Source of the DNA: Candidatus Thorarchaeota archaeon
Lineage (GTDB): Archaea; Asgardarchaeota; Thorarchaeia; Thorarchaeales; Thorarchaeaceae
Length of the DNA stretch: 32,000 nt
Direction: 5' to 3'
NCBI GenBank assembly: GCA_008080745.1
Contig: SHMX01000009.1
Location: 42,381 to 74,380, forward strand
In this document: in pieces, positions 28,776-31,887 of the stretch
How the letters are laid out: the number at the start of each line of letters is the position of its first letter
Position numbering within the stretch: position 1 is the first letter of the stretch
Notes under the pieces: model-generated
What the model saw: only the letters and a program-made list of their open reading frames with translations
The model's database searches: none
What the model was told of the DNA's origin: nothing
Program-made: the position numbers and the translations under genes

Positions 28776-31887
<3,112 letters not shown>

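Follow-up and report, generated by a model that had tools for sequence, protein, structure and literature searches.

A candidate 30-nt bulge-helix-bulge mini-intron in the helix 89 loop of an Asgard archaeal 23S rRNA gene, at a site that also holds introns in other Asgard families

RESULTS

A 30-nt insert in the helix 89 loop of a complete 23S rRNA gene

The window, a 32,000-nt stretch of contig SHMX01000009.1 from a Candidatus Thorarchaeota archaeon (assembly GCA_008080745.1, here G000), ends with a 23S rRNA gene. The gene is archaeal and complete (Rfam RF02540, 2484.6 bits, model positions 1 to 2987), and since the assembly contained a single 23S match, it is the sole copy found. In the covariance-model alignment, the tip of helix 89 (H89) consists of AGAGUUCC, 32 nt, and UCGAC, against AgAGcuCa, 2 nt, and UcGAC in the model, which amounts to a net insert of 30 nt. 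The insert sits in the 7-nt terminal loop of H89, between loop positions 6 and 7, corresponding to U2477 and A2478 of Escherichia coli. According to the structure line of RF02540, G31375-C31415 and A31376-T31414 are the native loop-closing pairs (E. coli G2470-C2480 and A2471-U2479). A whole-gene MAFFT alignment with four relatives (G014, G021, G026, and G001) placed the insert at exactly 31383-31412 and, in comparison with the same four relatives, this was the only G000-specific insert of at least 6 nt in the 23S gene. The features of the locus are collected in Table 1.

TABLE 1 Features of the 23S rRNA gene and its insert (window coordinates) and inserts in the 16S rRNA gene of the same genome (contig C2)
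Feature	Position	Strand	Basis
23S rRNA gene, intron host	28781..31886	+	RF02540 match, only copy found
H89 stem, 5' strand, pairs with 31419-31426	31364..31371	+	Eight pairs in MFE fold, BHB fold, and Rfam structure line
BHB outer helix, 5' strand (G-C and A-T with 31415 and 31414)	31375..31376	+	Pair probability 0.94-0.96
Central 4-bp helix, exon strand GTTC (H89 loop, E. coli 2472-2475)	31377..31380	+	Pairs with GAAC 31407-31410; covaries across 25 introns
5' bulge CTT, predicted cut after T31382	31381..31383	+	Geometry; EndA rule; boundary of intron-less allele
Putative 30-nt intron	31383..31412	+	Absent from G001 and 38 other family genomes; present in DNA unitigs of X1 and X2
Inner hairpin of intron: 9-bp stem (31384-92/31398-31406), loop ACTAC (31393-97)	31384..31406	+	Folds
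Central helix, intron strand GAAC	31407..31410	+	Pairing and covariation
3' bulge AGA, predicted cut after G31412; A31413 is E. coli A2478	31411..31413	+	Geometry; intron-less allele
BHB outer helix, 3' strand	31414..31415	+	Fold
H89 stem, 3' strand	31419..31426	+	MFE fold, BHB fold, and Rfam structure line
16S rRNA gene inserts	C2:590599-590628, C2:590866-591667, C2:592151-592180		Alignment to three relatives

The insert is present in DNA reads assembled independently

The genome is a metagenome-assembled genome (MAG) and misassembly is frequent in rRNA regions, which would favor an insert that is an assembly or sequencing artefact or that belongs to a dead copy of the rRNA gene. Logan unitigs of two DNA runs, X1 and X2, contradict the first of these, a case that the first-pass annotation had raised against its own reading: both contain the 30 nt within a 186-nt unitig that covers 31257-31442 without differences, at 125x in X1 and 36x in X2, the same depths as the flanks, and no alternative joint at the insert was found in the unitigs of either run. 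An assembler artefact is excluded because the unitig assembly method is independent of the genome assembly; X1 and X2 come from one marine-sediment study, possibly the source sample of G000, and are not an independent population. A dead copy is at odds with a gene that scores as a full-length 23S rRNA and is the only one found. We regard an artefact or a dead copy as extremely improbable.

Intron-less alleles define the boundaries of the insert

Excision of 31383-31412 had been predicted to leave GAGTTCCT joined to ATCGAC, and this very sequence occurs in G001, a genome of the same genus, and in G014. In G001, whose flanking sequence is 96-97% identical, the loop region is GCAAGAGTTCCTATCGACC, equal to the window sequence minus 31383-31412. 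Neither a deletion shifted by one base either way nor any other 30-nt deletion reproduced the G001 sequence. The loop of G014 is likewise intron-less and identical to that of G001. Excision restores the loop length of the Rfam model, and a 14-nt GAG..GAC tip was found in all 42 intron-less loops read (27 + 15). Another 38 genomes of the same GTDB family cover the site and show no extra length. Among the family genomes covering the site, the insert was found only in G000, a distribution suggesting that this lineage acquired it, at a position where other Asgard families have introns too (see below).

The insert and its flanks can form a bulge-helix-bulge motif

The first-pass annotation had proposed a 3-4-3 bulge-helix-bulge (BHB) motif at 31375-31415, every pair of which was present when checked base by base. 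Four base pairs separate the two 3-nt bulges, which lie on opposite strands, and in each strand the central helix precedes the bulge on its 5' side; the order along each strand (helix, central helix, bulge, 5' to 3') is the one seen in tRNA BHB motifs. The BHB fold has an energy of -32.8 kcal/mol, compared with -33.7 kcal/mol for the minimum free energy (MFE) structure, and the central helix has an ensemble probability of about 15%. The MFE structure, better by 0.9 kcal/mol, is not the BHB but an 11-bp hairpin with a 5x5 loop. Just 2 bp make up the outer helix of the BHB, beyond which lies a 3x3 internal loop. The 71-nt H89 region folds with a z score of -4.0 relative to shuffled sequences.

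We evaluated how often such a motif arises by chance with a BHB scanner run over both strands of the 3.16-Mb genome. The scanner recovered the H89 motif. Under the strict setting, which required 30 nt and an inner stem of 9 bp or more and allowed G-U pairs, it matched 17 places genome-wide, so about three in a million at any given position. A relaxed scan, also with G-U pairs, gave 1,589 matches, 137 of them with a stem of at least 8 bp; these numbers serve as a background rate, the relaxed scan not being an intron finder. The only other relaxed match within the 23S gene, at 30465-30487, lies in sequence common to the relatives.

Introns recur at the same site in other Asgard families

We searched 400 genomes of the phylum using an intron-less query, fetched the sequences whose alignments were broken, and ran pattern scans of genome and metagenome collections. 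Many of the survey alignments broke exactly at the H89 site. In total, 25 distinct introns were found at this site, including the one of G000; the 24 others, of 32 to 451 nt, belong to other Asgard families. The first-pass annotation, which was aware of no intron at this position or in any Asgard 23S gene, had suggested comparing Asgard 23S genes at 2477/2478 for presence and absence; the sequences show both, and the site is recurrently occupied in several Asgard families. The lengths are 30, 32, 33 (two variants), 35, 36, 46 (two variants), 52, 68-71, 96, and 186-451 nt. Carriers belong to families f1, f9, f14, f17, f20, f24, and f33, in addition to a Candidatus Hodarchaeota MAG and metagenome contigs. 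Their frequency differs between families, from at least 8 of the 9 f14 genomes with a match, 3/3 in f17, and 5/5 in f20 to 3/45 in f9 and single genomes of f24 and f33.

We then compared the BHB motifs of these introns. The 3-nt bulges are present in all 25 and the four central pairs in 23, the two 46-nt introns having three. Over the whole set, 98 of the 100 central-helix cells are paired, a level reached by none of 10,000 shuffles; as the carrier lineages are related, such covariation counts overstate the number of independent events. The second central pair is T-A in 13 introns and C-G in 12, and the third is T-A, T-G, or C-G. The exon strand GTTC is found with GAAC, GGAC, or GGAT on the intron strand, GCTC with GAGT or GAGC, and GTCC with GGAT, the intron strand changing in step with the exon strand. 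At the level of sequence, this compensatory pattern is the one expected of a splicing motif, and a retained extension would not need it. Outside the Asgard phylum, a pattern scan of 185,579 species genomes returned only non-rRNA chance matches. Bacterial and other non-rRNA chance matches (Chitinophagaceae and others) in the genome and metagenome scans were discarded, and no close homologue of the G000 intron sequence was found in these collections, from which records close to G000 may be missing.

These data bear on a different reading, in which the 30 nt are never removed and the mature 23S rRNA keeps them as a minor extension of H89 peculiar to this lineage. Its attractions are that no spliced form was seen in the RNA runs, that the MFE structure is a plain extended hairpin on H89, and that unusual expansion segments are known in Asgard rRNAs (PMC7594248). 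However, the loop length is invariant in every intron-less relative examined, with none of the graded variation that typifies expansion segments, and the insert includes a 4-nt strand complementary to the loop; an extension would have no use for this strand, which covaries with the exon in the 25 introns. Also against retention is the length, up to 451 nt, that inserts reach at this point in other families. Two bases of the tip, A2476 and A2478, are reportedly the protected ones. La Teana et al. (2001), cited in PMC3496166, present the H89 tip in their title as a site of factor contact, which would make retention of a 30-nt hairpin there unlikely. We consider permanent retention improbable. 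Expansion segments were also rejected as a class for the inserts at this site, which are all-or-none and all have a BHB, the intron-less loops being invariant in length.

Other intron classes were evaluated as well. The first-pass annotation had viewed the intron as perhaps the remnant of a homing-endonuclease intron, a suggestion that the longer introns do not bear out. Stop-free stretches reach 100 aa at most, in the 10 introns of 186-451 nt found here, and the longest is not conserved, measuring 100 aa versus 82 aa in near-identical copies; a LAGLIDADG intron or its remnant is unsupported on these grounds, and 30 nt are too short for an open reading frame (ORF). A group I intron was rejected likewise, the only Rfam match in the window being the large-subunit rRNA and 30 nt being far below the size of a group I core.

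The genome encodes a splicing endonuclease and an RNA ligase

In a BHB motif, archaeal splicing endonuclease (EndA) cleaves each bulge after its second nucleotide. Two genes of the G000 genome match PF01974, with 103.9 and 74.9 bits. The two paralogues are located at C5:18777-19343 and C2:348023-348685. One encodes a 188-aa EndA whose best match is the alpha subunit of Aeropyrum pernix (3p1z_B, E = 5.5e-43) and in which the active-site Y, H, and K are kept. No gap interrupts the alignment in the Crenarchaea-specific loop, where K occupies the positions of both K44 and R46; this loop, with K44 and R46, gives A. pernix EndA its broad substrate range (PMC3241643). The other gene encodes a 220-aa paralogue without the catalytic His, which is beta-like and looks structural. 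The RNA ligase RtcB is encoded too (601.7 bits). By homology, the genome encodes a Crenarchaeota-type alpha/beta EndA together with RtcB.

We propose the following mechanism. In the precursor, the loop nucleotides GUUC would pair with GAAC at the 3' end of the intron, the native loop-closing pairs serving as outer helix and the 9-bp hairpin as inner helix. This pairing would leave two 3-nt bulges on opposite strands, 4 bp apart, and the alpha/beta EndA would cut after the second nucleotide of each, that is, after U31382 and G31412. RtcB would then join the exons into GAGUUCCU followed directly by AUCGAC, which would restore the 7-nt loop GUUCCUA, and it would probably circularize the 30-nt intron. 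We infer the timing of these steps relative to 50S assembly, and also that the unspliced form would be non-functional.

The reading of 31383-31412 as a minimal, ORF-less BHB intron, put forward in the first-pass annotation, has held up: an intron-less allele exists, 24 other introns at the same site show compensatory changes, and the genome encodes both EndA subunits and RtcB. We consider it very likely that 31383-31412 is a mini-intron that EndA and RtcB would remove.

A variant of this mechanism stops halfway: EndA would cut both bulges, the exons would not be rejoined, and the mature 23S rRNA would consist of two pieces that the H89 stem and tertiary contacts keep in place. The cleavage signals are indeed present, and unusual archaeal 23S topologies, circular or permuted, have been described (PMC12918454; PMC7758197). 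On the other hand, RtcB is encoded, the nick would fall in a loop that is otherwise conserved to the nucleotide, and none of the data gathered here favor fragmentation. In the crenarchaeal rRNA introns that have been studied, the exons are reported to be ligated. We judge a two-piece 23S rRNA to be very improbable and retain excision followed by ligation.

We also looked into public RNA data. In 14 RNA runs, 0.11-0.16 of the sampled words were found, and the two good matches were DNA runs of one marine-sediment study. The RNA runs X4 and X9 contained only conserved rRNA pieces of relatives; loose ends in these runs read GAGTTCAT joined to ATCGACCACG, which is the canonical loop of another organism and is uninformative on splicing in G000.

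The 23S gene is flanked by a long processing stem formed by 28656-28788 and 31872-31990, with a duplex energy of -104 kcal/mol. In its MFE structure, the stem contains a BHB-like 3-3-3 motif with 3-nt bulges at 28751-28753 and 31910-31912, 3 bp apart; a strict 4-bp central helix was looked for in this stem and none was found. EndA is probably needed for this rRNA anyway, because the processing stem holds a BHB-like motif. The intron, as the first-pass annotation had proposed, would in addition make assembly of the peptidyl transferase center (PTC) dependent on EndA.

Other putative small introns in the G000 genome

Compared with three relatives, the 16S rRNA gene of G000 (C2:589938-592348) has three inserts, two of 30 nt and a third of at least 802 nt. 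The 3'-most insert (ATCTTTGAAGATTCGTCTTCGGGAGTGAAC) has a canonical TCAC/GTGA BHB with the same layout as the H89 intron. For the insert in the 690 loop, a strict 3-4-3 motif could not be fitted in the MFE structure. ARAGORN predicted introns in 17 of 39 tRNAs, 11 of the 17 being 28-34 nt long with a mode of 30; the program probably misses introns at non-canonical positions. Hairpin introns of about 30 nt have two verified members in this genome (23S and 16S), and ARAGORN indicates others in tRNAs. A blastn-short search of the genome with the intron and 10 nt of flank on each side returned nothing beyond 13-nt chance words, so there is no evidence of a recent copy from a tRNA or 16S intron.

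A joint reading of these data can be formulated, which we find doubtful. The H89 loop (2477/2478) would be a phylum-wide hot spot that Asgard introns have colonized repeatedly, and hairpin introns of about 30 nt would form one size class able to settle in any RNA that supplies a 4-nt BHB strand. Their spread would not rely on homing endonucleases but take place at the RNA level, for instance when cleavage and ligation run in reverse and reverse transcription or gene conversion ensues. If this were true, the intron would keep 2472-2475 paired until EndA acts and could thereby provide a timing checkpoint in late 50S assembly.

DISCUSSION

Relation to known archaeal introns

BHB introns of rRNA genes have been described mainly from Thermoproteota (PMC4496867). 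The closest parallels are the short (<50 nt) hairpin BHB introns found at seven loci of Thermoproteales 16S genes (Jay and Inskeep 2015, PMC4496867). Like these, the G000 intron is ORF-less, shorter than 50 nt, reduced to a single hairpin that keeps the BHB, located in a conserved functional region of rRNA, and variable between close relatives; unlike them, it lies in a 23S gene, in the H89 loop, and in the Asgard phylum. In Pyrobaculum oguniense, one hairpin intron was co-converted during the homing of a neighboring homing-endonuclease intron (PMC4496867).

The 23S rRNA genes of crenarchaea also carry BHB introns, which PMC4496867 cites in general terms. As in those genes, the G000 intron lies in a conserved 23S domain and has a BHB, its excision being predicted only. 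It differs in having 30 nt and no ORF, and a plausible endonuclease ORF is missing from all 25 introns of the site. The crenarchaeal 23S introns (Desulfurococcus, Pyrobaculum, and Aeropyrum) run to hundreds of nucleotides, and LAGLIDADG enzymes are often encoded in them. They are excised at the BHB by the tRNA splicing endonuclease, after which the exons are ligated and the intron is circular.

A third comparison is provided by tRNA introns. Those at non-canonical positions are cut by the Crenarchaeota-type (alpha-beta)2 EndA with the Crenarchaea-specific loop (PMC3241643; PMC5829648). The same type of EndA is encoded by G000, the size of the 23S intron matches that of the tRNA introns of its genome, and, as in the BHB of the tRNA anticodon loop, loop nucleotides of the host RNA form one strand of the central helix. 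The differences are that the substrate is an rRNA and that the outer helix has two pairs. In Asgard tRNAs, BHB introns have been gained repeatedly at sites capable of forming the motif, and an EndA with two paralogues is widespread (bioRxiv 10.64898/2026.10.13.758758). The H89 introns resemble these in what look like repeated gains in Asgard lineages at BHB-capable sites; in contrast, rRNA is unmentioned in that study, and its intron-rich classes are Jordiarchaeia and Atabeyarchaeia, whereas G000 is of the Thor type, a placement to which the Atlas cluster of one window protein, with Candidatus Thorarchaeota as its most frequent taxon, also points.

A description of introns at L2477/L2478, in helix 89, or of BHB introns in Asgard rRNA was not found in the literature searched, in which subscription journals are thinly covered. 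Penev et al. mention an analysis of introns in Asgard large-subunit rRNA, without details. The kind of intron is thus already known, and what appears to be new is the site in the 23S H89 loop (2477/2478), the Asgard phylum, and the recurrence across families.

Implications

The G000 intron provides a well-supported example of a BHB intron in an Asgard 23S gene. One site of H89, beside the PTC and the factor-binding face, holds introns of 30-451 nt in several Asgard families, and in three of them the intron is found in almost every genome that has the region assembled. Annotation and alignment of Asgard 23S genes should therefore take introns into account. If splicing proceeds as proposed, the machinery of tRNA splicing would have to act inside the 23S rRNA for ribosomes to mature in these lineages. 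The gain or loss of ORF-less archaeal introns can be studied in the close pair G000 and G001, of which only the former has the intron, and the covarying central helix offers a natural data set on the rules that EndA follows with non-tRNA substrates.

Further inserts in Asgard rRNA genes

Several other inserts were encountered in the course of the survey. A second site lies about 28 nt upstream of the H89 intron, at the PTC, near window position 31354/31355 (between GGGTAAC and AGAG; E. coli about 2451-2453). Inserts of about 145-790 nt occupy it in many relatives, including G001 (loci L006/L104, L009, L010, L011, L013, L014, L019, and L028). G000 has no insert there, so that the congeners G000 and G001 differ by two different introns. 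A group I assignment for the introns at this second site was rejected, as eight loci gave no Rfam group I match.

In a complete genome of another Asgard family (G036, locus L030, about 1570-1604), an insert of about 31 nt lies between GCTTGCTA and CCTCGATG, at E. coli about 2499/2500. It adjoins the PTC and is a candidate rRNA mini-intron. The complete 1.4-Mb Asgard genome G026 (L103) has a 30-nt insert in its 23S gene at a different site, after the position aligned to window 30832, which suggests mini-introns of about 30 nt in Asgard rRNA once more. Other Asgard alignments break at query positions 178, 202, 228, 236, 256, and 273 (L005:1600-1900), up to 170 nt downstream of H89, and these breaks suggest further intron sites in domain V. 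Finally, most f9 genomes (L054-L064 and others) are about 30 nt longer than the query in a 301-nt stretch, yet have a canonical H89 tip; their extra length is located in the helix upstream of H89, around CTTAACTGTGCTCGTGTGGCTGGTTGAG, and resembles an expansion more than an intron.
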